Part shown: positions 20,695 to 63,759 of the stretch, one piece after another
Numbering within the stretch: the stretch's first letter is position 1
How the letters are laid out: each line of letters starts with the position of its first letter
Source of the DNA: an uncultured Planctomycetota bacterium
GTDB taxonomy: Bacteria; Planctomycetota; Brocadiia; JAADGH01; CAYPFP01
Length of the DNA: 64,000 nt
Assembly (NCBI GenBank): GCA_964409935.1
Contig: CAYPFP010000003.1
Span: forward strand, 64,230 to 128,229
Direction: 5' to 3'
The notes under the pieces: generated by a model
What the model was told of the DNA's origin: nothing
Databases searched by the model: none
The model's input: only the letters and a program-made list of their open reading frames with translations
Translations under genes and position numbers: made by a program

Positions 20695-20736
20695 TATTAT
20701 GGAGTGGTTAAGTCTATATTATTTGGAGGACGAGGC

Positions 20737-48783: not shown

Positions 48784-49701
48784 TCAGGTCATCCATGCGC
48801 CGAAGCGCTTGCTCTCGTACCCGCCAGGCCCCCGCCCCAGGAGCATCGCGCCCACATCGGGATGTCGTCTGCAGTACTCCTCCACTTCGGCCGCCGACAT
48901 CACCATGAAGGCCGTCGAGACAGCGTCGGATTCCGCGCCGGCGCGGGCCTTGGCCCAGGCGCCCAGACGCTGCGCCCCTGTCGAGACAGGGGCGACCTCG
49001 ACCGGGCGCCCTGTTCGCGGGTCAATGATATGCTTTCCGTGGAGCAGCAGCCCCGACCCGCTGAGGGCGCAGTCGCGCAGGCGCACGCCGCCGAGCGACT
49101 CGGCCTGCCGTTCGGGGTCGCGGATGGCGACCGGCCAGGAACCGATCGCCAGGGCCGTGCTCTGGCCGGAGTTCAGCAGCGCGTCCTCGATGCTCCAGTC
49201 GCGCAGCACAGCGGCCATCTGGTCGAGGGCGTACCCCTTGCCCACCGCGCCGAGGTCCACCTTCACGCCGTCGGCAAGGACGCCGACTGTGTGCTCCTTC
49301 GCGTCCGTGCGCAGCAGGCGCATGCCGGTGCGCGCCCTGGCCGCCGCAAGCTCTTCCTCCGAAGGAGCGCCCTGCGCCGCCTGCCAACACTCCAGCAATG
49401 CCCCGATGGCGACGTCGAAAGCGCCGTTGGTCTCGGCGTGGACCCTCATGGCCAACTGGATGCACTCGAACGCGGCGATGCCGACGCGGACCGATTCGCC
49501 CGCGCGCAGGCTGTTGATCTGCGCCACATCGCTGTACGCGACGAAGCGGCTGAGTTCCTTCTCCAGGCGCGCGAGTTCCCCGAAGGCCGCGCGCGCCGCC
49601 TGTTGCGCGTAATTCTCATCCGCGCCTCGAATCACGATCTCGAAGGCGGCGTTCATGGCCTCGCGCGAGAATCGGTGGAGCGGCGCTTCGTAAAGGGTCA
49701 T
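48784..49701 (-). CDS. apbE: FAD:protein FMN transferase (ApbE family)
   Basis: ORF trimmed to ATG 49699-49701, which overlaps the upstream GT39 stop (ATGA); motifs AMNAAFEIVI, DLGAVGKGYALD typical of ApbE. Confidence 0.65.
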   Translation of the reverse strand: MTLYEAPLHRFSREAMNAAFEIVIRGADENYAQQAARAAFGELARLEKELSRFVAYSDVAQINSLRAGESVRVGIAAFECIQLAMRVHAETNGAFDVAIGALLECWQAAQGAPSEEELAAARARTGMRLLRTDAKEHTVGVLADGVKVDLGAVGKGYALDQMAAVLRDWSIEDALLNSGQSTALAIGSWPVAIRDPERQAESLGGVRLRDCALSGSGLLLHGKHIIDPRTGRPVEVAPVSTGAQRLGAWAKARAGAESDAVSTAFMVMSAAEVEEYCRRHPDVGAMLLGRGPGGYESKRFGAWMT

Positions 49702-51431
49702 GGCGATTTGGCGGGCGAACGCCCGACGTCGGGGGCGCGCCCCTTCATGAAGGCGTCCCAAGCGTCGTTCCTGACGTAAAGCCAGAGGTGGACGTGGGGG
49801 CGCAGGCCGTAACAGCTCGTGCGATACGCGTCATGCAGTCTTGATTCCACTTCGGGCTGGATTCGGGCGGAGACGATGACTACGGCGGCGTCCTTCCCCA
49901 GGTCGTCGGGAACCTTGTTCCAGTAGCCGACCCGCGAGAACTCGCGCAGATACCACGGCAACGGCCAGTAGTCGTCGTCGTGAGCGATGACCTTGATGAG
50001 AATGTTGCGGCCTTCCGGCAAGGCCCGGGCAATCTCCTCGACCCGCGCCACAAGGTGAAGGACGTCTGTGACGGGGTGGGCGTACACGTACGGGTTGCGG
50101 TTGTCGGCATAGTAGATGAAGTTGGCGCGACAGGTCTGCTGGGCAAGATTGTAGAGACAGGCGACCAGGAAGAGTCCGGCGCAGACCTGCGTCGGCCGGT
50201 TGGGCATGGCCTTCAGAATCGCCGCCGCGCCGACGCCGGCCAGCAAGATCATCCCGTGCAGGAAACCCAACATGCACCAGGGGGTCTTGTAGGGGATGAG
50301 CGAGTAGGCCAGCGTCATGAGAAGGGTGTAGACGGCGATGAACCGCAGGAGGGGCGCATGGCCCTCCAAGCCGCTGCTTTTCGCGAAGATCACGACCAGG
50401 CCGGCAACCGCCAGCGCCAGGATGAGCGCCTCGCTCCACCACGGGCCGGGCGCGTATTTTACGTAAAAGAGCAACTTGAGATAGAAATACCACGGGTGGA
50501 GGTGCACTGTGTTTGAGCCGGCCTTGTCGAGATAGCCCGCATAGGCGCGAACGGAGTCCAGCACCCCGGCGGGATTCGTGAAAAAGGAGGAATACAGAAC
50601 GAACGACACCGCACAGGCCGCCGCCAAACCCGCGAGCAGGCCGACCCTGCCGGTCGGCGGGAGCGCGCCTCTCCAGGAAAAAGCGGCGCCCGCATTCCGC
50701 CGCTCTATCCGGCCCGACAACCACGTGACGGCCAAGGCCCCCAGCATGGCGGCGTAGGCGATGATGCACGTCTCCTTGGTGGCGTGCATGAGGCCGAGGG
50801 CTGCGCCGGCCACGACCGCCCACACGACGCGGCGGCTCCTGCCCCCGGGGCAGGCCTGAACGTAGCGCCAACCTGCCGCGATGGCGGCGAAGGTGAAGAA
50901 GACGAGGAGCATCTCCTGGATATAGAAGCGGCTGTAGAAGACCATCGCGGGAGAGAAGGCAGTCAGAAGGGCCGCGCAGACGGCCGCGCCGCGACCGAGG
51001 CCGTCGGCCATAAGCAACATCAACAGCACCACTCCGATGCCAAAGATAACAGGGACGATTCGAAAGGCCCGCTTATCGCACTCGAGCGGGTCGCCGTCGG
51101 ATGCCATCCGCACCGACAGCAACGAAAGGTAATAGAGGCTCGGACCGTGATACTCGACGGGGTCGTAGCGATAGACGCCGGTCTGAGCGAGGTCAAGGGT
51201 CTTGAAGGCCTGGACGGCCTCGTCGCCGTGCAAAGGGCGTTCGCCCAGGCGCGGCAAGCGCAGGGCCGCCGCGGCGGCAACCGCCGTCAGGATGAGAACG
51301 GCAAAAAGGAGTCGCCGAGCCAGGCTTTCCGGCGCGGGGGCCGCGGGGCGATACGACGCACCGAGATTATTCCCGTTGTGCGCGACAGGACCGTCGGAAA
51401 GACCGGGCGCGGTTGTGTGCTGGGCGCTCAA
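49698..51431 (-). CDS. GT39/ArnT-like (PMT-type, GT-C fold) glycosyltransferase; start uncertain; C-terminus carries REP-B (GRAPDVGRSP)
   Basis: ORF 49698..51668 has low-complexity N-terminus; protein must begin before TM1 RRLLFAVLILTAV and loop motif LHGDEAV; only in-frame candidate is TTG at 51429-51431; 12 TM helices. Confidence 0.5.
   Translation of the reverse strand: MSAQHTTAPGLSDGPVAHNGNNLGASYRPAAPAPESLARRLLFAVLILTAVAAAAALRLPRLGERPLHGDEAVQAFKTLDLAQTGVYRYDPVEYHGPSLYYLSLLSVRMASDGDPLECDKRAFRIVPVIFGIGVVLLMLLMADGLGRGAAVCAALLTAFSPAMVFYSRFYIQEMLLVFFTFAAIAAGWRYVQACPGGRSRRVVWAVVAGAALGLMHATKETCIIAYAAMLGALAVTWLSGRIERRNAGAAFSWRGALPPTGRVGLLAGLAAACAVSFVLYSSFFTNPAGVLDSVRAYAGYLDKAGSNTVHLHPWYFYLKLLFYVKYAPGPWWSEALILALAVAGLVVIFAKSSGLEGHAPLLRFIAVYTLLMTLAYSLIPYKTPWCMLGFLHGMILLAGVGAAAILKAMPNRPTQVCAGLFLVACLYNLAQQTCRANFIYYADNRNPYVYAHPVTDVLHLVARVEEIARALPEGRNILIKVIAHDDDYWPLPWYLREFSRVGYWNKVPDDLGKDAAVVIVSARIQPEVESRLHDAYRTSCYGLRPHVHLWLYVRNDAWDAFMKGRAPDVGRSPAKSP
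49719..49742. repeat. REP-B, 1 copy at GT39 3' end / 18 nt upstream of apbE start
   Basis: ACGCCCGACGTCGGGGGCGCGC. Confidence 0.85.
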
Positions 51432-51459: not shown

Positions 51460-52137
51460 TTATCTGGCAGGTTTGCCGTAGACTTCAAGCTCGATGTAAT
51501 GGTTCTGGTCGTTGCCGGTGTTGCCCTTGCTGTAGAAGCGAACGTAGCGGGTCTTGACGCCCTTGCAGTCAACCAGCTTGCCTTCGAAGGTCTCGAAGTA
51601 CTCGGGGTCCTTGCCGATGCCGAGGCCGGCGGAATTGTCCTGGTCGTTGTTGAAGAGGGTCTGGACATTGGTGATGAAGTCGGCGTCGTCGGCCGCCTGC
51701 ACGACCACGTCGTGGTAAACGCGCGGGTCCTGGTGGTAGTGCCAGATGACTACGGCGTAAATGCTGCACGGTTCCTGCAGGTCCACCTGCACGTACTGAA
51801 CGCCTTGCTTGAGTTCGACGAAGCTGCCGTCGGTGGCCTCCTTGTCGCCATCCACGATCATCTCGAGATCGCCGATGGTCGGCTGGGAGTCGCTGCTGGT
51901 GACGGGCTTTTTGGCGGCGACGTTGGTCGTGCCTTCCGGGGCCAGGAAGGGCGGACGGACCTTGCCCGAGGGTTTCTCGACCGTCGTGCCCGCCGGGACG
52001 TTCTTGGGCGTGCCGATGAAGACGGGGCGGGGGAGCTTGATCTCGATCGGCACGAGTTTTTCCTCGGCCTGCGCCCGCAGCCCTGCCGCCAGAACAATGG
52101 CGGAAACCAACGCGATGCCGGCTTTGCTCGTTCTCAT
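51460..52137 (-). CDS. secreted discoidin (F5/8 type C)-like domain protein
   Basis: Signal peptide MRTSKAGIALVSAIVLAAGLRAQA; GAAGGAGG SD; galactose-binding-like jellyroll segments; 225 aa. Confidence 0.5.
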   Translation of the reverse strand: MRTSKAGIALVSAIVLAAGLRAQAEEKLVPIEIKLPRPVFIGTPKNVPAGTTVEKPSGKVRPPFLAPEGTTNVAAKKPVTSSDSQPTIGDLEMIVDGDKEATDGSFVELKQGVQYVQVDLQEPCSIYAVVIWHYHQDPRVYHDVVVQAADDADFITNVQTLFNNDQDNSAGLGIGKDPEYFETFEGKLVDCKGVKTRYVRFYSKGNTGNDQNHYIELEVYGKPAR

Positions 52138-52140
52138 TGC

Positions 52141-52827
52141 CTAGTTACCTCCTTCAGTGTCCTTCCACCAGTCCGGATGATGGTGTCTTGCCCAATGGGA
52201 ACAGACGCGACCCGTAATCATGGCGCCCAACGTGCCCGGGTTGGCCAGGGCGCCCAGGTAGAGATGCCCTATCACGGCCAGGGCCAGCGCCAGCGCGCAG
52301 TAGCGATGGATGTCGAGCAGGGCCTGCTGCCCCGCCGCGTCGAAGAGCGGGACCATCCGCCCCGCGCCGGACAACCCCAGACCGACGGCCAGAAGGCCGA
52401 TGAGCCAGAAATATATCTTCTGTCCGGCGTTGAAGCGGCCCGCCGGCAAGTCGTCCTTTTTCCAGAGATAGCCGCCGAAATGCCTGAGCCACTCCAGGTC
52501 GCGGCGCTCGAAATGCCCGTCGGCGGACCAGATGAGTCCGATGATGGCGATCGTCGCGGCGAAGACGGGCGCCGCCGCGAAATGCGCCAGCCACAGCCAC
52601 CCGCGAAGGGGACCGCCGCAGACGAGGACCGCCCAAAACCCCGTGACCGCCAGCGTGAAGAGGCTGAGGATGGCCAGCAGGTGGACGCAACGCTCCCCCA
52701 GGCTGAAGCGGTGGATGTGGGGCGGCTCCGAGTGGCGCACGATGTGTCTCGACCGCAGCGCCACGTGGTACGCAATCAGACCGGCCGCCGTGCCCAGAAA
52801 GCCGGCCATGGCAATCCATCGGAACAT
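52141..52827 (-). CDS. b-type cytochrome membrane subunit (cytochrome b561 / formate-dehydrogenase-gamma-like, 4 TM, conserved His)
   Basis: ORF trimmed to ATG 52825-52827 with GGGAGG SD; His in TM helices (AYHVALRSRH, HLLAI, LAHF, IGHLY); 16 nt after multihaem gene. Confidence 0.55.
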   Translation of the reverse strand: MFRWIAMAGFLGTAAGLIAYHVALRSRHIVRHSEPPHIHRFSLGERCVHLLAILSLFTLAVTGFWAVLVCGGPLRGWLWLAHFAAAPVFAATIAIIGLIWSADGHFERRDLEWLRHFGGYLWKKDDLPAGRFNAGQKIYFWLIGLLAVGLGLSGAGRMVPLFDAAGQQALLDIHRYCALALALAVIGHLYLGALANPGTLGAMITGRVCSHWARHHHPDWWKDTEGGN

Positions 52828-52843
52828 CAGGCCTCCCAGCCTC

Positions 52844-54757
52844 CTAATCCAGTCGCCTCGGTTTTCTGACAAACACCCTTCGGAGGGCCGCGCCAAGGCC
52901 GTGCGTCACGAACGTCGCCAGCAGGAGCAGCACAAGGACGCCCGCAACGAGGTTGACCCACGCCCAAACTTTGCGATGGCGGACGGTGGCGTTCAAAGCC
53001 TCCACGTCGCTGAGATTGAAGCCCGCCAGTTCGTGCATGGGCCTGGCCGCAGGCGTTTCGAGCCGGGCCGGCCCCGTCGCCGCGACGTTTCCGAAGAAGA
53101 ACGGCTTCTTCGCCGCGTGGCAGTCCGAGCAGCCGCGCGCGCCGAGCGCCTTGCCGGCCGGGCGAACGTCGTGCGCCACCGGCCAGGCGTACGGGGCCGC
53201 CGCCGGATGTTCGGCGCCGGCCAGCTTGCCGTCGGCGGACTTGCGGTAAATTCTTCCCGCGCACACATAGACAAGCTCGCCGTCGCGCTTCTGACCCGAG
53301 AGGGCCTCGAAAATCTTCAGGACCTGGGCCTCCGCCAGGGGCTTCCAGTCGTCGGCCTTGCCCTCGCTACCGCCCAGCGCCTTGTGAGCCGCCTCGGCCA
53401 CGACGCCGTGGGCCAGCGGGGCAACGGCGTCGCCCTTCATGATACCCCAAAACGCGGGCCAAAGCACCCGGTGAGGCGCGATCTTGCCGTCGGGCAGCCT
53501 CAGGAACACAGGCTCGACGACGAAGGGCGGAACGTCCTCGCGGCGGTGCATGCTCTGAACACCCAGTTCGTGGGCGCGGGCCAGGCGAACGCTGTGGGGT
53601 TGTTCGGCGGGGCGCGCGCCGGAATGGCACGCGGTGCAGGCCAGCTTTTTCATGTGCTCCGGCGGAAAACCCGCGTGGACGGACCTGGGCGCGCCGAGCC
53701 TCCCTACGTCATGGCAGCCCTCGCACGTGAAGGGACGGGCGGACTTGCCGCCCTCGTCGCCGCGCGTCATGGCGTGGTTGAGACCGTTGCGGTGGCAGTC
53801 CGCGCAGGCGATACCCCGCGCAATATGAACGTCCTCATCGGTCTTCCATTCCACGCTATTTTTCATGCCGGCGAGGCGGGCGGAGTGGCAGAAATAACAG
53901 CGGTCGGAGGGCGGCTTGCGGGGGATGTCGAGGAAGACGCGGTCGTTGGCGTCGAACCGCTTGGCGTCGTAGATGACCTTGACGTTGGCGGCGGGGCGCT
54001 CGGCAGCGGCGGGGTCGGCGTCGGCCAGGATGTCGCCTCCGCCGGCGCCGGCGTCCTTGGCCGAACCGCGAACGACGGCCAGACCCTCGGCGGCAACGGG
54101 CGCCCATTTGAAGTTGAGAGCGGCGATCTGCTTGCCCCACTCCGCCTGATCGCGAGCGGCATCCCCGCTGTGACAGCTCATGCAGTCAATCTCAAGCCTG
54201 CCCGAGGTCTTCCACTTGGCCTGCGGGTCTTCAGGCTTCTGGGCGGACAGGTCGGCCAGGCCGCCGCCGGGCGTGTACGGGCCGAAGCGCAACGTGAACT
54301 GCCAGGGCGTGAGACCCGCCTCGGCAGGGCGCCGGGCGTTTGCCCAGGGACGGCTCGACAACGGCAATTGTGTGCCCGACGCGAGGTCCGTGAGGATCCA
54401 CGGCTCGCCGGGCCGGCCCGCGGGCGCGTGGGACTCATGGGCGTTGAAGTGCCAGCCCGACCGGACGCTCGCCAGATCGTGGCATTTTCCGCATGTCCCC
54501 TCCGGCGAGAAAACCCGCGCGTTCTCGCCCTTGGGCGAGATCACCTCGCCCTCCGCGTCGTAAAGCGAGAGGCGATGGACGTAGGCCGCTCGACTGTCCG
54601 TTCGCGCCCCCGACGTCGGGGGCGCCCCCGACGTCGGGGGCGGCGTCTGCGGGGCCTTGCCTTCGGCCCCGCCCGAAGCGGCCGGCGGCACAACACAAAC
54701 GACCCACGCCAGGAAGCCCAGCGCGGCCAGACAGCGTCGGGTGATGTGGCGAGCCAT
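52844..54757 (-). CDS. heptahaem c-type cytochrome with C-terminal membrane anchor; N-terminal region has tandem REP-B (PPPTSGAPPTSGA)
   Basis: ORF trimmed to ATG 54755-54757 with AAGGTG SD; signal peptide; seven CxxCH (CGKCH, CMSCH, CYFCH, CADCH, CEGCH, CTACH, CSDCH); TM VWAWVNLVAGVLVLLLLATFV. Confidence 0.75.
   Translation of the reverse strand: MARHITRRCLAALGFLAWVVCVVPPAASGGAEGKAPQTPPPTSGAPPTSGARTDSRAAYVHRLSLYDAEGEVISPKGENARVFSPEGTCGKCHDLASVRSGWHFNAHESHAPAGRPGEPWILTDLASGTQLPLSSRPWANARRPAEAGLTPWQFTLRFGPYTPGGGLADLSAQKPEDPQAKWKTSGRLEIDCMSCHSGDAARDQAEWGKQIAALNFKWAPVAAEGLAVVRGSAKDAGAGGGDILADADPAAAERPAANVKVIYDAKRFDANDRVFLDIPRKPPSDRCYFCHSARLAGMKNSVEWKTDEDVHIARGIACADCHRNGLNHAMTRGDEGGKSARPFTCEGCHDVGRLGAPRSVHAGFPPEHMKKLACTACHSGARPAEQPHSVRLARAHELGVQSMHRREDVPPFVVEPVFLRLPDGKIAPHRVLWPAFWGIMKGDAVAPLAHGVVAEAAHKALGGSEGKADDWKPLAEAQVLKIFEALSGQKRDGELVYVCAGRIYRKSADGKLAGAEHPAAAPYAWPVAHDVRPAGKALGARGCSDCHAAKKPFFFGNVAATGPARLETPAARPMHELAGFNLSDVEALNATVRHRKVWAWVNLVAGVLVLLLLATFVTHGLGAALRRVFVRKPRRLD
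54604..54641. repeat. REP-B, 2 exact tandem copies in multihaem cytochrome gene
   Basis: GCCCCCGACGTCGGGGGC x2. Confidence 0.9.
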
Positions 54758-54762
54758 TTTTC

Positions 54763-56106
54763 TTACACCTTGAAATCTTCGGGCTTGAAGACAAGACTGC
54801 GTCCTTCGGCCACGGCCTCGTTCACGCGCAGGACCGTCACAGCGGTCTCGTAGGCCTTGTCGGCCGGACACGTGAGCGGCGTGCCGTTGCGGACGGCGTC
54901 GAAGAAGTTCTCCAGGTGCGGCTGATGGATGGGCTTTTGGAGGTCGGCGGCCATCTTGAGCGACTGCGCGTCCTTCTTGCCGTCGGCGCGGCGCGTCTCG
55001 CCGATCTTGAGTTCGATGGCGTCCTTGCCCATCTTGGAGACCTTGGCCGCGTCGTCCTCCCATTCGCGTTTCTTGGCGCGGACTTCGCGCATCATATAGC
55101 CGATGTTGGTGTCCTCGGAGATGACGAGGGTGCCCTCATCGCCCATGAAGGTCTCGTAGTAGCCGCCGAAGCTGGTGGCGTTGAGGACCTGGTAGAAGCC
55201 CCGCACCGTTCCGTCGGGAGAAGCGTACTGGTAGATGGCCATGACGTTGTCGTACCACTCGCGATCCTCGTAGTAATCCAGGCCGCCGCTGGCCGTGACC
55301 GACTGGGGCGGGCAGCCGACAAACCAGTTGAAGATGTCAATCTGGTGGGAGCCGAGGTCGGCGATGGCGCCGGCGGAAAACTTCTTGAACCAGCGCCAGT
55401 TGCGGAACTGCTGCATCGTCTCGTAGCCGTAGCGGGTCAGCGTCTCCTTGTCCATCTCGTATTTTTGCGGCCAGCCGAGGTCCTGGCTCTGGTCAATCGA
55501 GCGGTTCCACTGGCCGTAAACGTGCACGAGCTTTCCGCAGATCTTGTCCTTCTCGATGAGGCGTTTGCCGTGCCAGTAACGGGGATTGCTGCGGCGCTGG
55601 TGGCCGATCTGGAGGAGCTTTCCGGACTGGCGCGCGGCCAGGACCATCTGCTTTGCGCCTTCGAGGGTGTTGGCCATCTCCTTTTCGCAGTAGACGTGCT
55701 TGCCGGCCTTCAGACAGGCAAGAGTCTGCTCGGCGTGGACCCAATCGGGCGTGGCGATGAGGACGGCGTCCATCTCCTGCTCCTTCGCCAGCATCTCCTG
55801 ATAGTCGGCGTAGACGTTGACGGGCTGGTCGTATTTCTTGAGGATGTTGGCGGCGTAGGTCTGGCTGTAGGGCCAGACGTCGCAGACGGCACGGAACCGG
55901 ATGCCGGGTATCTTGAGGCAGGCCGCCAGAAGGACGCGCCCTTGGCTGCCCGCACCCACGAGGGCGACGTTGAGGTCCTGCACCTTCGGCGCGGCCTCCT
56001 GGCCGAACACCCCGCCTGCCAACAACACGCCCGCCCCGCCCACCGTAGCGGAACGGATAAAATCGCGGCGACTCAGTTCGGACTTCTCCAGCTCCTTCTC
56101 ACTCAT
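54763..56106 (-). CDS. Tat-exported Gfo/Idh/MocA-family oxidoreductase
   Basis: Tat motif SRRDFIRSATVGGAGVLLAGG; Rossmann VALVGAGSQG; 447 aa; 5 nt before cytochrome c gene. Confidence 0.7.
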   Translation of the reverse strand: MSEKELEKSELSRRDFIRSATVGGAGVLLAGGVFGQEAAPKVQDLNVALVGAGSQGRVLLAACLKIPGIRFRAVCDVWPYSQTYAANILKKYDQPVNVYADYQEMLAKEQEMDAVLIATPDWVHAEQTLACLKAGKHVYCEKEMANTLEGAKQMVLAARQSGKLLQIGHQRRSNPRYWHGKRLIEKDKICGKLVHVYGQWNRSIDQSQDLGWPQKYEMDKETLTRYGYETMQQFRNWRWFKKFSAGAIADLGSHQIDIFNWFVGCPPQSVTASGGLDYYEDREWYDNVMAIYQYASPDGTVRGFYQVLNATSFGGYYETFMGDEGTLVISEDTNIGYMMREVRAKKREWEDDAAKVSKMGKDAIELKIGETRRADGKKDAQSLKMAADLQKPIHQPHLENFFDAVRNGTPLTCPADKAYETAVTVLRVNEAVAEGRSLVFKPEDFKV

Positions 56107-56156: not shown

Positions 56157-59100
56157 TTACTTCGCTTTTTCAGGCTGAAGGGGGAAATTTACGCCGGCTG
56201 GCGGCTCGGCCTGGAACTTAAGGCCGTCAATGCGCTTGTCGTTCATATCGCGGAAACGGGCGCAGGCCGACCAATGGCCGCCTCCCTGGGTAATCTTCAT
56301 GAGGAGACAATTCCAGCCCTCCTGGAGCGTGGCGCGGACCGTGTCTTCGCCCGGCTTCGTGGGTCTGGCGACGTTGTTGGCGTGTATGAGTTGCCCGTTG
56401 AGCCAGACCTTCACGCCGTCGTCGCTGCCGATTTCGAGCAGAGCGTCCTGCTTTCTGGGCGCCTGGACATAGGTGCGCAGATAGCCAGCGCAGTTGCTGC
56501 CGCCCAACGCCCTGTCCATCTCGATAAGGCCGGGCTTGGGACCGGCCGGCATCGGCGCCCACTTGGCGTCGGCCGCGCGCCCGACGTCGGGCGAGGGCAG
56601 TTCGGGCGCGAACGCCTTGTCGAACAACTGTGAAGCGCCCATACCCGTCTCCGAGTACGGCCCGGAGACTTGCCAGACGGCGATGCAGTCGTCATAGGTG
56701 GCGCTCGCGCCGAGCACGCCCGCAAGCTGCTTCTTCAAGGCGGCGTCCTTGGTCTCGAGGATGACCCCCTTGAGGGCGAGCTTCGTCTCGGCGGGCCAGG
56801 CGGTCATCGTGGCGCGCGCGATCTGGGGAAGAATCTCGGCCGCCTGGGCGTTGGCGGATTCATCCTTCAGGTCGGCGATGGCGGCGTCGAGGGCCTTGGG
56901 ATCGCCCATGAGCAACACGCCCTGCGGAGAGGCGCCGTCGGCGGCGCCTGCCGCGGGGCAGGCGCGCACGCGCACACAGGCCGCCCACTGGCTGCCGCCC
57001 TGCGTCACCTTGAGCAGCAACGTATTCCATCCCTTCTTCAACGCCACCTCCACCTTGTCGGCGCCGGGCGAACAACTGCGGTTGACGTTCTGGCTGACCA
57101 CGACCTCTTTGTTGAACCAGGCCTTCAAGCCGTCGTCGCTGCCCATCTCCAGACGCGCCTTCTGGTCCTTGTCGGAGCGCACCCACGCCTGCAAGTAGGC
57201 CACGCGGTTGTTGCCCTTGATGTTATCCATCTTGTCCATCTCGATCTTCCACGCCTTGGAACGGTCGGCGCCACCGCTGACGGCCTGCCACTTCACGTTC
57301 TTGGCGTCGGCTTGTTCGGGGGGGAATTCCGTGTCGAAGAGCTTCTTTTCGTTCTTGCGGCCCTCGGAATACGGACCCGACAGCATCCATGCGGTAACGT
57401 AGTCGTCGTACTGGGCGATGCGCTCGAAAGCGGCCTTGATCTGCTTCTGAACCGCCTCGTCCTTGTAGGCGTCGGCGACGGCCTTGAGTTCGGCCTCGGC
57501 CTGCGCGCGATGCTGAAGGCTGACCGGCTCGGCGACCTTGACCAAGGCCAGGACGGTCTCGGCACGGAGGGCTTCGTCGGCCAGCAACGGCCTGAGCAGA
57601 TTGAAGGCGCCGGGGTCCTGCAACTGCGCCACACCCGCGATCACGAGCTTCTTCTCTTCAGGGCGCTGCGCCACGGAGAGGCCGTTTTCCAGCATCTTCA
57701 GCGTCTCTTCGGGAGCGCGATCGCAGGGCAGCCCCACCACGCGCACGTAGCCGCGCAAGGCAAGCACACGGTACTTCTGGTCCTGGGAACTCTTGGCCAG
57801 TTCCAGGAGCGCCGGGGCCGACGCCGCGTCGGGCCAGTCGCACAACGACCGCAGGGCGGCCTCGCTGACCTCCGCGTTCTCGTCCTTGAGACAGGAGAAG
57901 ACCTGGTCGAGCGCCTTCTGCCCGCCGACCATGCCCAACGTGCGAAGCAGCGAGCACTTCACCGGCGGCGTTGCGCCGGCGAAGGCAGCGATGACGGGCT
58001 TCGCCTGGTCCTCGCCCTCCACGCGCTCGCGCCCCGCGCGCTCGCGCCCCGCGCGCTCGCGCCCCGCGCGCAGGCACGTCGCCGCGACGGCCTTCTCGGC
58101 CTCCTTCTGATCCTTGTCCTTCGCCTTGACGAGGATGGCCACAAGAACGGGCAGTTCCTTCTCGTCGGCGAGGTTGGCCAGCGCCTTGAGCGCCTCGACA
58201 CGCACACCGACATCGGCGTCCTCGGCGGATTTCAGGAGCGTCGGCACGACCTTGTCGGACTTGCGGGCGGCCAGGGTCTTCACCAGCTCGATGCGACCGG
58301 CAGGGTCGGCCTCGGACAGGCCCTTGATGATGGCGTCAATCACCCCTTCGCCGGGGATACGCGCGAGCGCGGCGGCTGCCGCGAGTTGCTCGGCCTCCTT
58401 CGTCTTGACCAGGGCCGAGACGAGCGTCCGGCTGGCGGATTCGTCGGCGAGAAGGCCCATGCCCTCGTACGCGGCGATGCGCACGTCGGGAGCGGCATCC
58501 TGGGCGGCCTCCACCAGCGTGGGCACTACGCTCTTGTCGCCCCGGTTGGCCAGCACACGCAGCAACAGGGTCTTGATGTCGGGCGCGCGCCCGACGTCGG
58601 GCGCGGCGCCCTTGACCTGCGCGATGAGCGCCTGGGTCACGTCGTTGCCGGGCATGGTCTGCATGGACGTCATGGCCGAACCGCGAATCTTCATGTCCTT
58701 GTCGGCGAGGGCCTGCAGGAGGGTCGGAAGCTCGGAGATGCCGCCGGCATTGGCTATACCGGCCAAGGCGGCGCACTTCAAGTGCGCCTCGCCGTCGAGC
58801 AACTTCCGGTACATGGCAAGCGCGGACGCCTTATCGTTGTTCGTGCAGAGGGCGTCGGCCAGGACGAGGTAGGAATCGGCGGCGACGGTCCGAGCGCGAG
58901 CGGAACCCTTGGACATGGCCGCGACGATGAGGTCGGTGGAGGCCTTGTCGCCGAGGGCGGCCAGCCCCCTGACGGCGGCGGAGCGCACGGCGTCGTCGTC
59001 ATTGGCGGCGAACTTGGCAAAAACGTCGGCGTTGGCCTTGTCGGTGTGGTAGGCCAAGGCCTGGAGCAGAGCCGCCCGCCACGCGGGGTCCGCCGCCTTT

Positions 59101-59633
59101 TCGAGGGCCGCGCGAAGGGCGGCGGCGGCCTGCGGGGCGGGATTGCCTTCGAGCGCCCGCCTCGCGCAGTCGCGAATGATAGAGTCCTTGTCGTCCAGCA
59201 ACGCCGTAACGGCGGCCACGGCCTCGGCGCGGCCCACGCGTTCGAGTTGCAGAAGCAACCACGCCTTGGCCGGATTCGGCGTGTCGGCGGCGAGCCTGGC
59301 GGCAATGGCCTTGCAGACGGCGGCGCGCTCGGCCTCGGCGCCCGGACGGCCGGCGCGCCAGCAGATGGCCTGGAGGTCCTGCTGCGGCTGCTTCGCCTCG
59401 GCGGGGTCCTCGCTGCCCATCTTCGGGAGCAGGGCCTCGATCACTTTGGCGTAGGCCGCATCGAGCTGCGCAGGCGTACGCTCCTTGGCCTTCTCTTCGC
59501 CCTTGAGTTCCTTGATGAGCATCTCAAGCTCGGCGCCCGGCGCCGCAGCATCCTGCGCCGGCAGCGGCCTGTGAGCCATGCCCGACAGGACGGCGAGCAG
59601 CGAAGCCACAATGACGAAGTTCAGACGTTTCAT
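56157..59633 (-). CDS. secreted HEAT-repeat protein with two C-terminal LamG/concanavalin-like domains; carries two REP-B copies and a 3x15-nt VNTR (RERAGx3)
   Basis: ORF trimmed to ATG 59631-59633 (MKRLNFVIVASLLAVLSGMA) with AGAGGAAAGG SD; PBS-lyase-type HEAT repeats; C-terminal IGSDDGVKVWLNG-type jellyrolls. Confidence 0.6.
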   Translation of the reverse strand: MKRLNFVIVASLLAVLSGMAHRPLPAQDAAAPGAELEMLIKELKGEEKAKERTPAQLDAAYAKVIEALLPKMGSEDPAEAKQPQQDLQAICWRAGRPGAEAERAAVCKAIAARLAADTPNPAKAWLLLQLERVGRAEAVAAVTALLDDKDSIIRDCARRALEGNPAPQAAAALRAALEKAADPAWRAALLQALAYHTDKANADVFAKFAANDDDAVRSAAVRGLAALGDKASTDLIVAAMSKGSARARTVAADSYLVLADALCTNNDKASALAMYRKLLDGEAHLKCAALAGIANAGGISELPTLLQALADKDMKIRGSAMTSMQTMPGNDVTQALIAQVKGAAPDVGRAPDIKTLLLRVLANRGDKSVVPTLVEAAQDAAPDVRIAAYEGMGLLADESASRTLVSALVKTKEAEQLAAAAALARIPGEGVIDAIIKGLSEADPAGRIELVKTLAARKSDKVVPTLLKSAEDADVGVRVEALKALANLADEKELPVLVAILVKAKDKDQKEAEKAVAATCLRAGRERAGRERAGRERVEGEDQAKPVIAAFAGATPPVKCSLLRTLGMVGGQKALDQVFSCLKDENAEVSEAALRSLCDWPDAASAPALLELAKSSQDQKYRVLALRGYVRVVGLPCDRAPEETLKMLENGLSVAQRPEEKKLVIAGVAQLQDPGAFNLLRPLLADEALRAETVLALVKVAEPVSLQHRAQAEAELKAVADAYKDEAVQKQIKAAFERIAQYDDYVTAWMLSGPYSEGRKNEKKLFDTEFPPEQADAKNVKWQAVSGGADRSKAWKIEMDKMDNIKGNNRVAYLQAWVRSDKDQKARLEMGSDDGLKAWFNKEVVVSQNVNRSCSPGADKVEVALKKGWNTLLLKVTQGGSQWAACVRVRACPAAGAADGASPQGVLLMGDPKALDAAIADLKDESANAQAAEILPQIARATMTAWPAETKLALKGVILETKDAALKKQLAGVLGASATYDDCIAVWQVSGPYSETGMGASQLFDKAFAPELPSPDVGRAADAKWAPMPAGPKPGLIEMDRALGGSNCAGYLRTYVQAPRKQDALLEIGSDDGVKVWLNGQLIHANNVARPTKPGEDTVRATLQEGWNCLLMKITQGGGHWSACARFRDMNDKRIDGLKFQAEPPAGVNFPLQPEKAK
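56563..56592. repeat. REP-B, half-site + 1 copy in HEAT-repeat gene
   Basis: GCGCGCCCGACGTCGGGCG. Confidence 0.8.
58023..58067. repeat. perfect 3 x 15-nt tandem repeat CGCGCTCGCGCCCCG (in-frame VNTR, RERAG x3)
   Basis: Three exact copies inside HEAT-repeat gene. Confidence 0.85.
58575..58605. repeat. REP-B, half-site + 1 copy in HEAT-repeat gene
   Basis: GCGCCCGACGTCGGGCGCG. Confidence 0.8.
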
Positions 59634-59649: not shown

Positions 59650-60924
59650 TCACAGGGTCCACGGGGCGCGCTTGGGCCGGTCCAGCCAACGGTTGGCCTC
59701 GTCGTCACCGACAAACCTCTCATTCACGGGATCCCACCTCAACGGACGCTTGAGCCAGTAGGCGATGTTGCCCAAGTGGCAGATGATCACCGAACGGCAT
59801 CCGATCTCGACGTCGCAGATCGGTTTGCGGCGGGTCTTGACACAGTCCAGGAAGTCCGCCTTGTGGCCGGCGTTTCGGGGCAGATGCACGTCGTTGGGAC
59901 CGAGAGGCTCGGTCGCTACGGCTTCGGGAATCGCGGTGAGTTTTTCGCGACTGACCTCCACCTTGCCGTCGGCGCCCGTGAAAGTAACGCCGCTGGACTG
60001 ACCATGATACATAAGGACGCCGTTCTCGTACCTGTACGTCAGGAGCTTGACGTCCTTGGAGTCGGGAGGAATGATCTCGACCGGCCCCGTATGGTCGGTG
60101 TTCAGGCCCCACTGAGCGATGTCGAACATGTGGGCGCCGATGTCGGTCATGCTGCCGCCGGAGTAGTCGCGGAAAGGACGCCACGTAAAAGGATGCAGGC
60201 CGTCGTTGTAAGGCCGCCACGGGGCGGGGCCGAGCCACATATCCCAGTCCAGGCCGTCCGGGACCGATTGGGCGGGCAGGTAGCAGTCGCTCGACGGCCC
60301 GCCGCAGCCCACATGCACCGTGACCACCTTGCCGATGCGGCCGCTGCGGACGTACTCGCACGCCGTGCGGAACAAACCGCGAAACTCCGAGCGCTGCTGG
60401 CTGCCGGTCTGGAAGACGCGCCCGTACCGGCGCACGGCGTTGACCATCTGGCGCGCCTCGCGAATGGTCAGCGAGAGGGGCTTCTCGCAGTAGATGTCCT
60501 TGCCGGCCTTCGCCGCCAGGATACATTGGACGGCGTGCCAGTGGTCGGGCGTGCCGATACTCACGGCGTCAATGTCGGGGCGTTCGAGCAGTTCGCGGAA
60601 ATCGTTGTAGGCCTCGCAGCCCTTGAACGACGCGTTCTTGGAGACGTTCGCGTAGTAGTCGGCAACGACCTTGGCGGCGGAGTCGCGCATGGCGCGGTCC
60701 ACGTCGCAGACCGCGACCATCTGGACCTCCGGGTAGCCCATGAACGAACGCATGTTGCCGGCGCCCATGCCGCCCACGCCGATAGCGCCCATGACGATGC
60801 GGTTGCTCGGCGCGGGACGACCCTCGGCGCCCAAAGCAGCGGCGGAGATAATCGTCGGAGCGGCGACAAAGGCCGCCGCGCCTTTCAGGAACTCGCGCCG
60901 CGAAACAACCGTCTTCTTCCTCAT
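59650..60924 (-). CDS. Tat-exported Gfo/Idh/MocA-family oxidoreductase (tandem paralog 3 of 3)
   Basis: ATG 60922-60924 with GAGAAGG SD; Tat motif SRREFLKGAAAF; IVMGAIGVGGMGAGN; C-terminus DDEANRWLDRPKRAPWTL shared by paralogs. Confidence 0.65.
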   Translation of the reverse strand: MRKKTVVSRREFLKGAAAFVAAPTIISAAALGAEGRPAPSNRIVMGAIGVGGMGAGNMRSFMGYPEVQMVAVCDVDRAMRDSAAKVVADYYANVSKNASFKGCEAYNDFRELLERPDIDAVSIGTPDHWHAVQCILAAKAGKDIYCEKPLSLTIREARQMVNAVRRYGRVFQTGSQQRSEFRGLFRTACEYVRSGRIGKVVTVHVGCGGPSSDCYLPAQSVPDGLDWDMWLGPAPWRPYNDGLHPFTWRPFRDYSGGSMTDIGAHMFDIAQWGLNTDHTGPVEIIPPDSKDVKLLTYRYENGVLMYHGQSSGVTFTGADGKVEVSREKLTAIPEAVATEPLGPNDVHLPRNAGHKADFLDCVKTRRKPICDVEIGCRSVIICHLGNIAYWLKRPLRWDPVNERFVGDDEANRWLDRPKRAPWTL

Positions 60925-60942
60925 CGGCCTTCTCATCTTCGA

Positions 60943-62208
60943 TTACAACGACCACGGAGCGCGCCGAGGCCGGTCCAGCCAGCGGTTGGCCTCGTCGTCT
61001 CCGATAAACCGTTCCTTTACGGAGTCCCACTTCAGCGGCCGCCTGAGCCAGTAGGCGATATTGCCCAGATGGCAGACAGTCACGGAGCGGCATCCCGTCT
61101 CGACGTCACAGATGGGCCGTTTGCGCGTACGAATGGCCTGGAGCCAGTCGTCATGGTGATTTCGGCTCCTGTAAAGCTGAATCTCGCCCGGTCCGACAGG
61201 CTGCCGAAGTATGGCCTCCGGTTCGGCGCTCAGGTAATTGCGATTGACCTCAATGGCCCCTTCCGTGCCCGTGAAGAGGATTCCTTTTCCCTTGCCGGTA
61301 ACGCCGCCGTGATACACGCGCACGCCGTTGGCGTACGTGAAGGTCAAAAGCTTCACGTCCTTGCCGTCCGGAGGCGCGATCTCAACCGGCCCGCTCTCGT
61401 CCATGCCCATCGCCCACTGAACAATGTCGAAGTGGTGCGAACCCCAGTTCGTCATCTGGCCGCCGGAGTAGTCGCGGTACTCTCGCCACGAATAGGGGTG
61501 GATGCCCTTGTTGAAGGGGCGCCACGGGGCGGGACCGAGCCAAAGGTCCCAGTCGAGTCCGGCGGGCGCAGGCTGCGCCGGCAGATAGCAATCGCGCGAC
61601 GGCCCTCCGACATTCACGTTGGCGCTGACAAGTCTCCCGATGCGCCCGTTGCGGACCCACTCGCAGGCCGTGCGAAAGCCGCTCGAAGACCGCTGCTGGC
61701 TGCCCGTCTGAAAGACACGGCTGTGCCGGCGCACGACGTTCACCATCTCGCGCGCCTCGCGGATGGTGAGAGACATGGGTTTCTCGCAGTAGACGTCCTT
61801 TCCCGCCTTGACGGCGGCGATGCAGTTCAGCACGTGCCAGTGATCGGGCGTCGAGACGACGACGGCGTCAATGTCGGGACGCTCGACCAGGTCGCGGAAA
61901 TCGTTGTAGGCCTCGCAACCCCGATAGTCCTTCACGTGCCGCTCGGCGTAGCGCTCCTCGACGAACTCCTTTGCGGCCGTGCGCTTCCGGGCGTCCACGT
62001 CGCAGACGGCCAGCACGTGCACGTCGGTCCGGCCGAGAAAACTCTTCAAGTGGTTGCCGCCCATGCCGCCCACACCGATAAGGCCGAGTGTAATCCGGCC
62101 GCTCGGCGGCGGCACACCCGCCGCCCCCAGGGCCGAAGCAGGCACAAAGGCCGGCAACGCCAGCACCGACACCGCGTCCTTCAGAAAACCACGACGCGTC
62201 AACGTCAT
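60943..62208 (-). CDS. Tat-exported Gfo/Idh/MocA-family oxidoreductase (tandem paralog 2 of 3)
   Basis: ATG 62206-62208 with GAGGATGG SD; Tat motif TRRGFLKD; C-terminus DDEANRWLDRPRRAPWSL. Confidence 0.65.
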   Translation of the reverse strand: MTLTRRGFLKDAVSVLALPAFVPASALGAAGVPPPSGRITLGLIGVGGMGGNHLKSFLGRTDVHVLAVCDVDARKRTAAKEFVEERYAERHVKDYRGCEAYNDFRDLVERPDIDAVVVSTPDHWHVLNCIAAVKAGKDVYCEKPMSLTIREAREMVNVVRRHSRVFQTGSQQRSSSGFRTACEWVRNGRIGRLVSANVNVGGPSRDCYLPAQPAPAGLDWDLWLGPAPWRPFNKGIHPYSWREYRDYSGGQMTNWGSHHFDIVQWAMGMDESGPVEIAPPDGKDVKLLTFTYANGVRVYHGGVTGKGKGILFTGTEGAIEVNRNYLSAEPEAILRQPVGPGEIQLYRSRNHHDDWLQAIRTRKRPICDVETGCRSVTVCHLGNIAYWLRRPLKWDSVKERFIGDDEANRWLDRPRRAPWSL

Positions 62209-62256
62209 CCGCACCATCCTCAACGAGAAGACGACCGCACGGAGTCCGGCGGGATA

Positions 62257-63642
62257 TCAAAGCGACCACGGGGCGCGCCGAGGCCGGTCCAGCCAACGGT
62301 TCGCCTCGTCGTCGCCGACAAACTGTTCTTTCAGGGGGTCCCACTTCAGCGGCCGCTTGAGCCAGTATGCGATGTTGCCCAGATGACAGACCGTCACGGA
62401 ACGGTGACCGATCTCCACGTCGCAGATGGGCCGCTTGCGCGACTTCACGCACTCGATAAAATCGGCGTGGTGGCCCGGACTCTTGTACAGGTGGATTTCG
62501 CCGGGCCGAGTAGGTTCCTTCATGAGGCCTTCAGGCTCGGTGAAGAGCTTGCCGCGATTAACGCTGATCGTGCCTTCCGTGCCGGTGAACAAGACGCCGC
62601 CCGCCTTCCCCGTGTTGCCGCCGTGGCAAACGGGCACGCCGTTGGCGTACTTGAACGTCAGGAGCTTCACGTCCTTGCCGTCCGGGGGCGTGATGTCGAC
62701 CGGACCGCTGCCGTCCATGTCCAACCCCCATTGGGCGATGTCGAAATGATGAGCGCCCCAGTCGGTCATGCTCCCGCCGGAGTAGTCGCGGAAACTGCGC
62801 CAGGCGAAGGGGTGCAGGGCCTTGTTGTAAGGACGCCAGGGAGCAGGGCCGAGCCACATATCCCAGTCCAGACCTTCAGGGATCGGCTCGGCGGGCAGGT
62901 AGCAGTCGGCCGACGGCCCGCCCACGCTCACGTTCACGCTGACCAGGCGGCCGATACGACCGTTGCGGACCATCTCGCAGGCGAAACGAAACTCGCTCGA
63001 AGAACGCTGCTGGCTGCCGGTCTGAAAGACACGGTGATAGCGGCGAACGGCGTTGGCCAGTTCGCGGCCCTCGCGGATGGTGAGCGTAAGGGGCTTTTCG
63101 CAGTAGATGTCCTTGCCGGCCTTCGCCGCGGCAACACCGATGAGGGCGTGCCAATGATCGGGCGTGCCGATCATGACCGTATCAATGTCCTTGCGGTCGA
63201 GCAGGTCGCGGAAATCGTTGTAGGCCTCGCAGCCCTTGAAGGAGCCGGCGGCGGCGTCCTTGGCGTAACGGTCCTCGACCATCTTCCTGGCTTCATCGCG
63301 CATGGAGGCGTCCACGTCGCAGACGGCGACGACCTGCACTTCGGGCCGGCCCATAAACGCGCCCAGGTTCCCCCTGCCCATGCCCCCGACGCCGATGCCG
63401 CCCATGACGATGCGATCGCTCGGCGCAGGACGGCCGTCGGCGCCCAGAGCAGAGGCGGGAATGAATGCCGGAATCGGCACGGCAGCGGCCGCGGCGAGAG
63501 TGGCCGTCGAAGCAACTGCGGACCTCAGGAAGCCCCTCCGCGAGATGCGGCTTGCCCTGAACGCCCCCGACGTCGGGGGCGCGCCCAGCCCGCCAGACGG
63601 ATGGGCGGGCGGGGGCGAGATTCGTTCAGGGCTTGCGGACAT
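62257..63642 (-). CDS. Tat-exported Gfo/Idh/MocA-family oxidoreductase (tandem paralog 1 of 3); N-terminus has REP-B (GAPPTSGA)
   Basis: ATG 63640-63642 with AGAGAGG SD; Tat motif SRRGFLRSAVAS; C-terminus DDEANRWLDRPRRAPWSL. Confidence 0.65.
   Translation of the reverse strand: MSASPERISPPPAHPSGGLGAPPTSGAFRASRISRRGFLRSAVASTATLAAAAAVPIPAFIPASALGADGRPAPSDRIVMGGIGVGGMGRGNLGAFMGRPEVQVVAVCDVDASMRDEARKMVEDRYAKDAAAGSFKGCEAYNDFRDLLDRKDIDTVMIGTPDHWHALIGVAAAKAGKDIYCEKPLTLTIREGRELANAVRRYHRVFQTGSQQRSSSEFRFACEMVRNGRIGRLVSVNVSVGGPSADCYLPAEPIPEGLDWDMWLGPAPWRPYNKALHPFAWRSFRDYSGGSMTDWGAHHFDIAQWGLDMDGSGPVDITPPDGKDVKLLTFKYANGVPVCHGGNTGKAGGVLFTGTEGTISVNRGKLFTEPEGLMKEPTRPGEIHLYKSPGHHADFIECVKSRKRPICDVEIGHRSVTVCHLGNIAYWLKRPLKWDPLKEQFVGDDEANRWLDRPRRAPWSL
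63562..63584. repeat. REP-B, 1 copy in N-terminus of Gfo/Idh/MocA paralog
   Basis: CGCCCCCGACGTCGGGGGCGCGC. Confidence 0.85.
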
Positions 63643-63730
63643 GGTCTGACCTCTCTGTCTTCTCACGGTTTTCTGCCCGCCCGGCTATCCGCCACAGACG
63701 TGCAACGCCAACGTGATAAATTATGAGGGA

Positions 63731-63759
63731 ATTGTACTGATACGCGCCTTCATTTTCAA
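63731..63759 (-). promoter_or_regulatory. near-consensus sigma70-type promoter TTGAAA-N17-TACAAT (minus strand) driving the three Gfo/Idh/MocA paralogs
   Basis: Minus-strand read TTGAAAatgaaggcgcgtatcagTACAAT; ~80 nt upstream of first gene start. Confidence 0.5.

Follow-up and report, generated by a model that had tools for sequence, protein, structure and literature searches.

Can an exported dehydrogenase that depends on a nicotinamide cofactor pass its electrons to cytochromes in the membrane? The question is raised by a locus in a 64,000-nucleotide stretch of contig CAYPFP010000003.1 from an uncultured Planctomycetota bacterium. We call this whole stretch the window, and all feature coordinates are positions within it. 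Three adjacent genes encode a Gfo/Idh/MocA-family dehydrogenase with a signal for twin-arginine translocation (Tat), GfoA; a heptahaem c-type cytochrome, cytC; and a membrane cytochrome b, cytB. A preliminary description of the window had read the trio as an operon for a periplasmic substrate-to-quinone chain. Coupling to a membrane conduit is the well-supported part of that reading, whereas we infer the direction of flow, the quinone, and the hydride-to-haem step.

The three genes lie on the minus strand, and their coordinates and short spacers were as first described: 5 nt from the GfoA stop to the cytC ATG and 16 nt from the cytC stop to the cytB ATG. GGAGG/AGGA strings resembling Shine-Dalgarno sequences stand 5' of each start, again as described. 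The trio is the centre of an array of ten genes on the same strand (63666 to 48784), which also encodes three more Tat-signal Gfo enzymes, a HEAT-repeat protein, a discoidin-like protein (disc), a PMT/Agl23-like glycosyltransferase, and an ApbE-family protein. The trio is contiguous, but the conserved unit is larger than the three genes proposed, and it includes disc, the PMT-like protein, and ApbE. Both disc and ApbE had been placed immediately downstream of cytB. This holds for disc, which starts 3 nt after cytB, but the PMT-like gene sits between disc and ApbE.

We examined this arrangement in 80 loci, which were obtained via an alignment of the cytC family from contigs of one genome per species; 581 stretches encoded a relative. 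According to their genome-bin labels, the loci come from about eight phyla. Planctomycetota bins included Phycisphaerae, Sedimentisphaerales, Pirellulales, Planctomycetales, and one labelled Gimesia maris (L057), and the other bins were from Sumerlaeota/BRC1, KSB1, Calditrichota, Omnitrophota, Kiritimatiellota, Verrucomicrobiota, Acidobacteriota, and others. Naive calling of the longest open reading frames (ORFs) gave antisense artefacts in high-GC loci, and adjacency was therefore counted with tblastn and hidden Markov models, in the 69 loci with room for most genes and the 72 with room for cytB. A GfoA orthologue (45 to 74% identity) was directly upstream of cytC on the same strand in 59/69 loci, and 7 more of the 69 had another Gfo within 2.5 kb upstream. 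Cytochrome b was directly downstream of cytC, or fused to it, in 67/72. The discoidin protein was found within 10 kb of cytC in 47/69 loci, as were the PMT-like protein (43/69), ApbE (43/69), a B-type Gfo orthologous to GfoB3 and upstream of the cluster (39/69), and the HEAT protein (31/69). When ten GfoA orthologues (59 to 100% identity) were taken as the starting point, eight adjoined cytC, one of these being a fusion of cytC and cytB (c-b fusion). The remaining two were one that stood alone and one with a different neighbouring module. Because this gene order is conserved across phyla, the association of GfoA, cytC, and cytB is far beyond chance. Failure of the trio to co-occur in relatives had been named beforehand as the observation that would speak against a link; the trio did co-occur, and the c-b fusions add to the adjacency counts.

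GfoA begins with SELSRRDFIRSA and matched PF01408 (72.4 bits), PF02894 (54.4 bits), and PF22725 (48 bits), all above their cut-offs. Its twin-arginine motif, SRRDFIRSA, scored slightly under the Pfam cut-off for TAT_signal (21.6 versus 22.7 bits) but above that of TIGR01409 (18.4 versus 16.7 bits). In an alignment of 60 orthologues, the Tat residues R13, R14, and F16 were conserved in at least 90%, and several segments were invariant: G51-x-G53-x-x-G56, D76 (where the second strand ends), C140-E-K-E143, G168-H-Q-R-R-S173, and D250-L-G-S-H254. D76 at this place in the Rossmann fold is presumably a sign that NAD rather than NADP is used. The E-K-type motif (C140-E141-K142-E143) and the catalytic Asp/His segment (D250-L-G-S-H254) are those of the Gfo/Idh/MocA family. 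The first gene therefore has both the N- and C-terminal Pfam domains and the twin-arginine signal that had been claimed for it, and its Tat motif, GxGxxG, D76, E141-K142, and D250/H254 are invariant or nearly so, which is consistent with the functional Tat and cofactor sites that had been presumed. Given that the trio co-occurs in both related and distant genomes and that these motifs stay intact, the functional link between the exported dehydrogenase and an electron conduit in the membrane is well supported.

The AlphaFold model of GfoA (pLDDT, its confidence score, 86.4) matched many Gfo/Idh/MocA structures in Foldseek with E values of about 1e-23. Scyllo-inositol dehydrogenase, levoglucosan dehydrogenase, GFOR, GenD2, and glucuronide 3-dehydrogenase were nearly equal matches, at 17 to 21% identity. 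Because the model fits several sugar dehydrogenases about equally, it suggests that GfoA is a bona fide sugar-ring alcohol dehydrogenase outside any described subfamily. GfoA falls short of the BT_2158 glycoside 3-dehydrogenase family NF058561, with 89.9 bits against an equivalog cut-off of 750 and a match to the N-terminal half only. The Tat signal, the intact binding motifs, and the lack of free NAD in the periplasm together suggest that GfoA would carry a non-dissociable NAD(P). Its conservation is unusually high, with about 60% identity across phyla.

The second gene proved to be the heptahaem cytochrome with a C-terminal anchor that had been described. The CxxCH motifs of cytC number exactly seven. 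None of them varies among 90 aligned homologues, and neither do eight other His residues, a number sufficient for bis-His ligation of each haem. Hydrophobic helices lie at residues 9 to 27 (the N-terminal signal) and 599 to 617 (the membrane anchor), and the AlphaFold model (pLDDT 86.9) has a beta-rich domain without haem at about residues 410 to 530. Pfam gave weak matches to c3/c7-type modules and to MtrC/MtrF. The NCBIfam multihaem families (NrfB, DmsE/MtrA, MtrC/OmcA, ExtN, octahaem tetrathionate reductase, and NrfA) all scored 30 bits or less, against cut-offs of 192 to 400. There was no Foldseek match in the PDB at E<0.001, and the best profile match there (E 0.0016) spanned about 50 residues of NrfA. 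Because neither search found a PDB relative, cytC represents an uncharacterised family of multihaem cytochromes. An exhaustive search of 1.84 billion representatives found 547 clusters of this family at E<=1e-30. Among the best 150 family representatives, 136 had exactly seven CxxCH motifs and 40 were fused to cytochrome b. In one member, P0009 (1108 residues), the C-terminal two-thirds appear to be duplicated internally in tandem, which makes the haem wire much longer. A D..TGTQ string in cytC was considered as a degenerate ApbE site and rejected; it is present in 126/265 family members, and only its T-Q pair is invariant.

cytB belongs to PF01292 (67.9 bits against a cut-off of 30.1) but falls under the formate dehydrogenase gamma equivalog TIGR01583 (96 versus 115.85 bits), and there is no molybdopterin or Fe-S subunit in the cluster. 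It had been described as a dihaem protein with four transmembrane helices (TM). We found five hydrophobic segments, and the dihaem assignment suits the window protein but not most orthologues. The window protein has all four canonical His residues: H49, H82, H174, and H188. In the c-b fusions the C-terminal anchor of cytC runs through a short loop into TM1, the first core helix of cytB, and the FdnI-like orientation of cytB is thereby fixed. H82 (early TM2) and H174 (early TM4) would then bind a periplasmic-side haem, and H49 and H188 would bind a cytoplasmic-side haem. H82 is kept in 44/46 orthologues and H174 in 46/46. H49 and H188 are shared by the window protein and its nearest relatives but are gone from most others. 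Because window cytB keeps both His pairs, it may be able to carry electrons through the membrane in the manner of formate dehydrogenase-N. Many of its relatives probably cannot.

The cytochromes are not the only conduit found with GfoA. In two loci (L083 and L089), a GfoA orthologue (62% and 56% identical) is followed by an NQR/RNF-like module instead of cytochromes. This module lacks NqrA and comprises two NqrD/E-type proteins, an NqrF-like Fer2-FAD-NAD protein, an NqrB/RnfD-type protein, and an NqrC/RnfG-type FMN-binding protein, with an additional RnfC-like protein in L083. The same disc, PMT-like, and ApbE genes come after the module, along with a GT2 glycosyltransferase gene in L089. In the NqrC-like protein a canonical flavinylation site, DAITGATMT, is followed some 25 residues further on by a full discoidin domain of the disc family. 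Such NqrC::discoidin fusions account for 36 of the best 120 database clusters and come from Kiritimatiellae, Lentisphaerae, and Planctomycetota (Table 1). Because the same genes stand beside either module, there is one periplasmic core (GfoA, disc, the PMT-like protein, and ApbE) with two interchangeable conduits, one of haem and the other of flavin and Fe-S. The finding of an NQR/RNF-like conduit on the same core reinforces the coupling of GfoA to a membrane conduit. The swap follows the pattern of modular flavinylation/cytochrome usage that Meheust et al. 2021 (PMC8238504) describe for other enzymes. Their survey dropped ApbE and FMN-binding genes that had no predicted signal peptide, the class they call "NQR/RNF-like" consists of NqrB-NqrF fusions, mostly from Actinobacteria and the candidate phyla radiation (CPR), and partial NQR/RNF systems were proposed to carry electrons from cytosolic NAD(P)H to extracytosolic acceptors.

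A Pro-rich N-terminal stretch is conserved in the disc family. A DNSxGxG string in disc was considered as an ApbE site and dismissed, as it has no resemblance to the ApbE motif. Tandem double-discoidin proteins also exist (P0242-P0253, 426 to 725 residues). The PMT-like protein scored 226 bits against TIGR03663 (cut-off 126) and has a conserved RPxHxDEA motif, with HxDEA located in the first loop. Family-averaged hydropathy, a crude method, gave eleven helices and put the N-terminus on the inner and the C-terminal domain on the outer side of the membrane, which fits the positive-inside rule. ApbE has the conserved motifs DLGxxGKGYA, HIIDPR, and DAxSTAFM, but no signal peptide was found in the window protein or in 21 separately encoded orthologues. 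In about 12 loci, single ORFs of about 840 residues fuse the PMT-like protein to a C-terminal ApbE (Table 1). Because the C-terminal domain of the PMT-like protein falls outside in the hydropathy topology, the ApbE of these fusions is predicted to be periplasmic.

What GfoA might oxidise is suggested by its neighbours. ThuA occurs in related loci as a fusion with HEAT repeats or with DUF1080. The same set of loci has further Tat-signal Gfo enzymes, a xylose-isomerase-like TIM barrel joined to DUF1080 (3-keto-disaccharide hydrolase), sugar permeases, ABC transporters, and glycoside hydrolases. All these belong to the gene vocabulary of the 3-keto-glycoside pathway (BT2156-2159 and AL1-4) described in PMC8121099 and by Nasseri et al. 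(bioRxiv 10.1101/2024.03.25.586180), who speculate on cytochromes for NAD re-oxidation. In one locus, futalosine-pathway menaquinone genes (VitK2_biosynth and a radical-SAM CofH_C-type gene; L086:16731-18649) come directly after ApbE. A GT2 glycosyltransferase of the polyprenyl-phosphate-sugar-synthase type (about 240 to 265 residues) flanks the cluster divergently in about 30 loci (Table 1) and is absent from the window's cluster.

The adjacency, the c-b fusions, the swap of conduits, the invariant motifs, the sugar-dehydrogenase fold, and the sugar-pathway neighbours lead us to propose, with a probability of roughly 55%, that the cluster encodes a dehydrogenase that acts on glycosides or sugars in the periplasm and whose bound NAD gives up its electrons via haems to the quinone pool. 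What we infer within this proposal is that NAD is bound, to what class the substrate belongs, which way electrons flow, that quinone accepts them, and that two-electron chemistry is converted to one-electron chemistry. GfoA would fold in the cytoplasm around a non-exchangeable NAD+ and then be exported by Tat. In the periplasm it would oxidise a secondary alcohol of a sugar or glycoside, most likely within a 3-keto-glycoside route that the neighbouring Tat-signal Gfo enzymes may also serve, as ThuA, DUF1080, and TIM-barrel genes may elsewhere. The enzyme-bound NADH, which cannot leave GfoA, would be trapped and therefore re-oxidised by the membrane-anchored cytC, and cytC would hand electrons to the periplasmic-side haem of the FdnI-like cytB. 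In the window organism, electrons could then cross the membrane by way of the second haem to menaquinone, which would be reduced at the cytoplasmic face, and because of this passage the last step would be electrogenic. The outcome would be an electron sink for periplasmic sugar oxidation that possibly adds to the proton-motive force and makes the 3-keto-glycoside enzymes independent of 3-keto-sugar co-substrates. disc might be a conserved partner or adaptor of GfoA, and the PMT-like protein and ApbE might be maturation factors. The potentials of sugar alcohol/ketone couples are far lower than that of menaquinone (about -74 mV), and the oxidative direction is therefore downhill.

Several points weigh against this proposal. 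NAD(P)H is an obligate hydride donor and haems are single-electron acceptors, and the known NAD(P)H:cytochrome reductases use flavin. The hydride-to-haem step is the chief weakness because the cytochrome version of the cluster has no identified flavin. The preliminary description had suggested a search for ApbE flavinylation motifs in neighbouring secreted proteins, but the canonical motif, D..[ST]G[AS][ST], was found neither in the cluster proteins nor in any long ORF of the window. PF01292 cytochromes run both ways in known systems, and most cytB orthologues are without the ligands for a cytoplasmic-side haem. Many carriers of the cluster are anaerobic fermenters, in which quinol sinks are not known. 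One GfoA orthologue (L082) stands alone. Finally, the alternative module has a cytoplasmic NADH-binding NqrF-like subunit, and outward flow is thought to occur in comparable systems, according to PMC8238504.

There is also a more far-reaching version of the proposal. The exported, enzyme-bound nicotinamide would be re-oxidised via a hitherto unrecognised, protein-bound two-to-one-electron converter, which would make the cluster a new class of extracytosolic respiratory complex. We regard this as doubtful. One candidate converter is a covalent FMN placed by the PMT-tethered, signal-less ApbE at a non-canonical site on disc or cytC. The other candidate is an O-linked sugar that the PMT-like enzyme would attach to disc and that, by switching between its alcohol and 3-keto forms, would relay hydride while tethered. 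With such a converter, GfoA would be a hub enzyme that serves a whole set of periplasmic Gfo-type glycoside dehydrogenases.

It is unlikely, in our judgement, that electrons run the other way, with quinol (via cytB and cytC) or cytoplasmic NADH (via the NQR-like variant) keeping the GfoA-bound NAD reduced. GfoA would then be a periplasmic reductase that, for example, returns 3-keto-sugars or enone intermediates to sugars. Multihaem and membrane modules of the NrfBCD, CymA, and NapC types usually oxidise quinol, which is consistent with this direction. So are the NqrF-like Fer2-FAD-NAD subunit of the NQR/RNF-like variant and the cytosolic NAD(P)H donor proposed for partial NQR/RNF systems in PMC8238504. 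The final step of the 3-keto-glycoside route is also a reduction. However, in the described pathway the NADH from the oxidising step serves that reduction, and an external reductant is therefore not needed. Transfer from menaquinol (about -74 mV) to NAD+ (-320 mV) would also be strongly uphill, and the second haem that would be needed to drive it with the proton-motive force is missing from most cytB orthologues.

Modification of an envelope glycan or glycoprotein seems less probable again. GT2, the PMT-like protein, and disc would build or bind a periplasmic glycoconjugate; GfoA would oxidise its sugar, for example to a keto- or amino-sugar; and the cytochromes or the NQR-like module would merely dispose of electrons. 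This would suit the way in which disc, the PMT-like protein, and ApbE keep one another's company and accompany the Gfo in both conduit variants, and the polyprenyl-phosphate-sugar-synthase-like GT2 beside the cluster in about 30 loci fits in too. The roughly 60% identity of GfoA across phyla also fits a housekeeping substrate better than a variable nutrient. However, most loci have catabolic neighbours (DUF1080, TIM-barrel isomerases, ThuA, sugar transporters, and glycoside hydrolases), the window's own cluster has no GT2, and no aminotransferase or other biosynthetic partner is conserved.

It is very improbable that the cytochromes are merely co-located with GfoA and serve some other pathway (extracellular or metal electron transfer, for example), without exchange between them: the weak Pfam similarity of cytC to MtrC/MtrF and c3/c7 modules and the few loci where cytC has no adjacent Gfo (L020, L048, and L066) would suit this, but adjacency is 86 to 93% over about eight phyla with tight spacers and c-b fusions, a flavin conduit substitutes at the same position, and cytC directly follows a Tat-signal B-type Gfo, itself preceded by a ThuA-DUF1080 fusion, in L011 and a ThuA-DUF1080 fusion in L020.

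The electron-transfer proposal can be set beside several known systems. Zymomonas mobilis GFOR (PMC8121099) and the Caulobacter aldose-aldose oxidoreductase likewise have the Gfo/Idh/MocA fold, are exported by Tat, and oxidise sugars in the periplasm. They carry a non-dissociable nicotinamide cofactor, as GfoA presumably does. However, GFOR regenerates its cofactor at the expense of a second sugar, which it reduces, and works without a redox-protein partner, whereas GfoA, which is 17 to 21% identical to it, has the NAD-type Asp (D76), a 60-residue insertion, and a linked cytochrome or flavin conduit. The BT2158/AL3 enzymes and the BT2156-2159 pathway also combine a Tat-signal Gfo with DUF1080 and TIM-barrel isomerase genes, and BT2158/AL3 share with GfoA the problem of re-oxidising bound NAD. 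Neighbours of the Alistipes AL cluster include GT2 and GT39 (Nasseri et al., bioRxiv 10.1101/2024.03.25.586180). Unlike the window, the Bacteroides BT2156-2159 clusters have no cytochrome or NQR-like partner, and recycling is by 3-ketoglucose.

Periplasmic sugar electrons reach the respiratory chain through c-type haems in the FAD-dependent glucoside 3-dehydrogenase/LacABC and fructose dehydrogenase systems (PMC8121099). Those systems have a GMC-type FAD subunit, a small Tat subunit, and a cytochrome with one to three haems, whereas the window's cluster combines a nicotinamide catalytic subunit with its own cytochrome b and with a seven-haem cytochrome whose family is undescribed. The proteins scanned included no GMC or FAD-binding protein, from GfoB1 through ApbE (GfoB2 and GfoB3 lie outside that scan). 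Closer in layout is FdnGHI, with its Tat-exported catalytic subunit, C-terminally anchored wire, and four-helix PF01292 cytochrome b, and window cytB has FdnGHI-like His placement in TM1, TM2, and TM4 (two). In FdnGHI the wire is Fe-S instead of haem and the catalytic subunit is a molybdoenzyme, which the window's cluster lacks; unlike FdnGHI, most cytB orthologues retain the periplasmic-side haem alone. The alternative cluster version resembles Na+-NQR/RNF and the systems of PMC8238504 in its NqrB-, C-, D-, E-, and F-like subunits and ApbE. The window's ApbE departs from the ApbE norm, having neither an extracytosolic signal nor a [S/T]GA[S/T] substrate nearby. The main text of PMC8238504 makes no mention of the present system and contains neither "Planctomycet" nor "discoidin" and no NqrC::discoidin or PMT::ApbE fusion (the supplementary tables were outside this check). 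In the literature searched, neither a link between a Gfo/Idh/MocA enzyme and a multihaem cytochrome nor either fusion was described, and the Caldithrix genome paper does not mention a Gfo-cytochrome arrangement. The architecture of the cluster works like known periplasmic dehydrogenase-cytochrome-quinone chains and like the FdnGHI redox loop; what sets it apart is the nicotinamide enzyme and the undescribed cytochrome family.

Table 1. Features of the array in the window, followed by fusion proteins and GT2 genes of related loci (L labels; positions there are within the locus).
Feature	Position	Strand	Basis or remark
Promoter-like site TTGAAA-17-TACAAT, 5' of the first gene of the array	63731..63759	-	Consensus match only, no evidence of function
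GfoB3, Tat-signal Gfo/Idh/MocA, PF19051 C2 type (SRRGFLRS)	62257..63666	-	ORF, paralogue of the scanned GfoB1; exact start uncertain
GfoB2, Tat-signal Gfo/Idh/MocA (TRRGFLKD)	60943..62223	-	ORF; tblastn matches in related loci
GfoB1, Tat-signal Gfo/Idh/MocA	59650..60936	-	Pfam PF01408, PF19051, TAT_signal
Secreted HEAT-repeat protein	56157..59633	-	HEAT_2 4e-44; likely start M31, MKRLNFVIVASLL
GfoA, Tat-exported Gfo/Idh/MocA dehydrogenase, 447 residues	54763..56106	-	ATG 56106, TAA ending 54763; Pfam/NCBIfam
cytC, heptahaem c-type cytochrome, 637 residues	52844..54757	-	ATG 54757; seven CxxCH
cytB, FdnI/HydC-type membrane cytochrome b, 228 residues	52141..52827	-	ATG 52827; PF01292
disc, secreted discoidin/F5-8 type C-like protein	51460..52137	-	PF22633, 28.6 bits
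PMT/Agl23-like GT-C membrane glycosyltransferase	about 49698..51431	-	TIGR03663, PMT, PMT_2; TTG start 51431 inferred
ApbE-family FAD:protein FMN transferase	48784..49701	-	PF02424, 162.7 bits; ATGA overlap with the PMT-like stop
PMT::ApbE fusions	L035:14821-17349; L007, L008, L028, L029, L031, L036, L038, L045, L051, L052, L067		
NqrC::discoidin fusions	L083:14997-16241; L089:9001-10203; P0241, P0248, P0251, P0254-P0262, others		About 400 residues; D[AG]I[TS]GA[ST]
GT2 examples	L035:18116-18898; L039:13626-14345	-	
GT2 examples	L086:7881-8678; L087:8121-8855; L089:13578-14312		

In the upstream part of the array, the HEAT-protein gene and the three Tat-signal Gfo genes, all three of the PF19051 type, are separated by gaps of 6 to 50 bases. 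The N-terminal half of GfoB1 is related to the BT_2158-type glycoside 3-dehydrogenases (NF058561, 179.6 bits against a cut-off of 750). The HEAT protein ends in two beta-sandwich domains with a weak match to PA14 (E 0.002) and nothing more; DUF1080 and CxxCH were considered for this protein and are unsupported. Its orthologues in other loci have an N-terminal ThuA domain (ThuA plus HEAT in L035).

The tail of the array faces a convergent gene. The ORFs convergent with it on the plus strand encode a protein with a GH78-like alpha-L-rhamnosidase domain (44334-47069), a multi-spanning hydrophobic protein that resembles an EamA-type permease as judged by eye (47073-48029), and a HAD-superfamily hydrolase (48060-48722); together they are more sugar-related genes beside the cluster. 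Farther away, an ORF on the plus strand (20704-22029) opens with MFCYQCEQTAKGTGC, the signature of hybrid-cluster protein (hydroxylamine reductase Hcp), a hint that the source organism lives anaerobically or microaerobically.

A palindromic 12-mer, CCCGACGTCGGG, occurs 11 times in the window against 0.03 expected. It is the core of a GC-rich palindrome of about 18 to 22 nt that is sometimes in tandem, and every copy lies in the right-hand third of the window (40753, 42474, 42779, 44574, 46155, 49722, 54609, 54627, 56580, 58590, and 63566). Many copies are within ORFs and read in frame as APDVGRAPDVG or PTSGAPPTSGA. Examples of such coding sites are the N-terminal linker of cytC, the HEAT protein (twice), the GH78-like protein, the N-terminus of GfoB3, and the C-terminus of the PMT-like protein, exactly at the ApbE junction. 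The palindrome looks like an element of the REP (repetitive extragenic palindromic) or MITE (miniature inverted-repeat transposable element) kind that is tolerated in coding linkers.

Periplasmic Gfo/Idh/MocA enzymes are very abundant in glycan degraders of the PVC and FCB groups and of the gut, and the recently described route that cleaves glycosides through oxidation and elimination rather than hydrolysis depends on them. Where this pathway is not redox-neutral, their non-exchangeable NAD must be re-oxidised in a way that, as the field acknowledges, still needs explaining, and this cluster offers a concrete, testable candidate. The cytC family is present in more than 580 representative species genomes, including the bin labelled as the cultivated species Gimesia maris. 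If the proposal is true, the cluster would open a new way for sugar electrons to enter electron-transport chains, anaerobic as well as aerobic, and would define a new family of multihaem cytochromes. It would also widen the range of ApbE-dependent systems, including the PMT::ApbE and NqrC::discoidin fusions.

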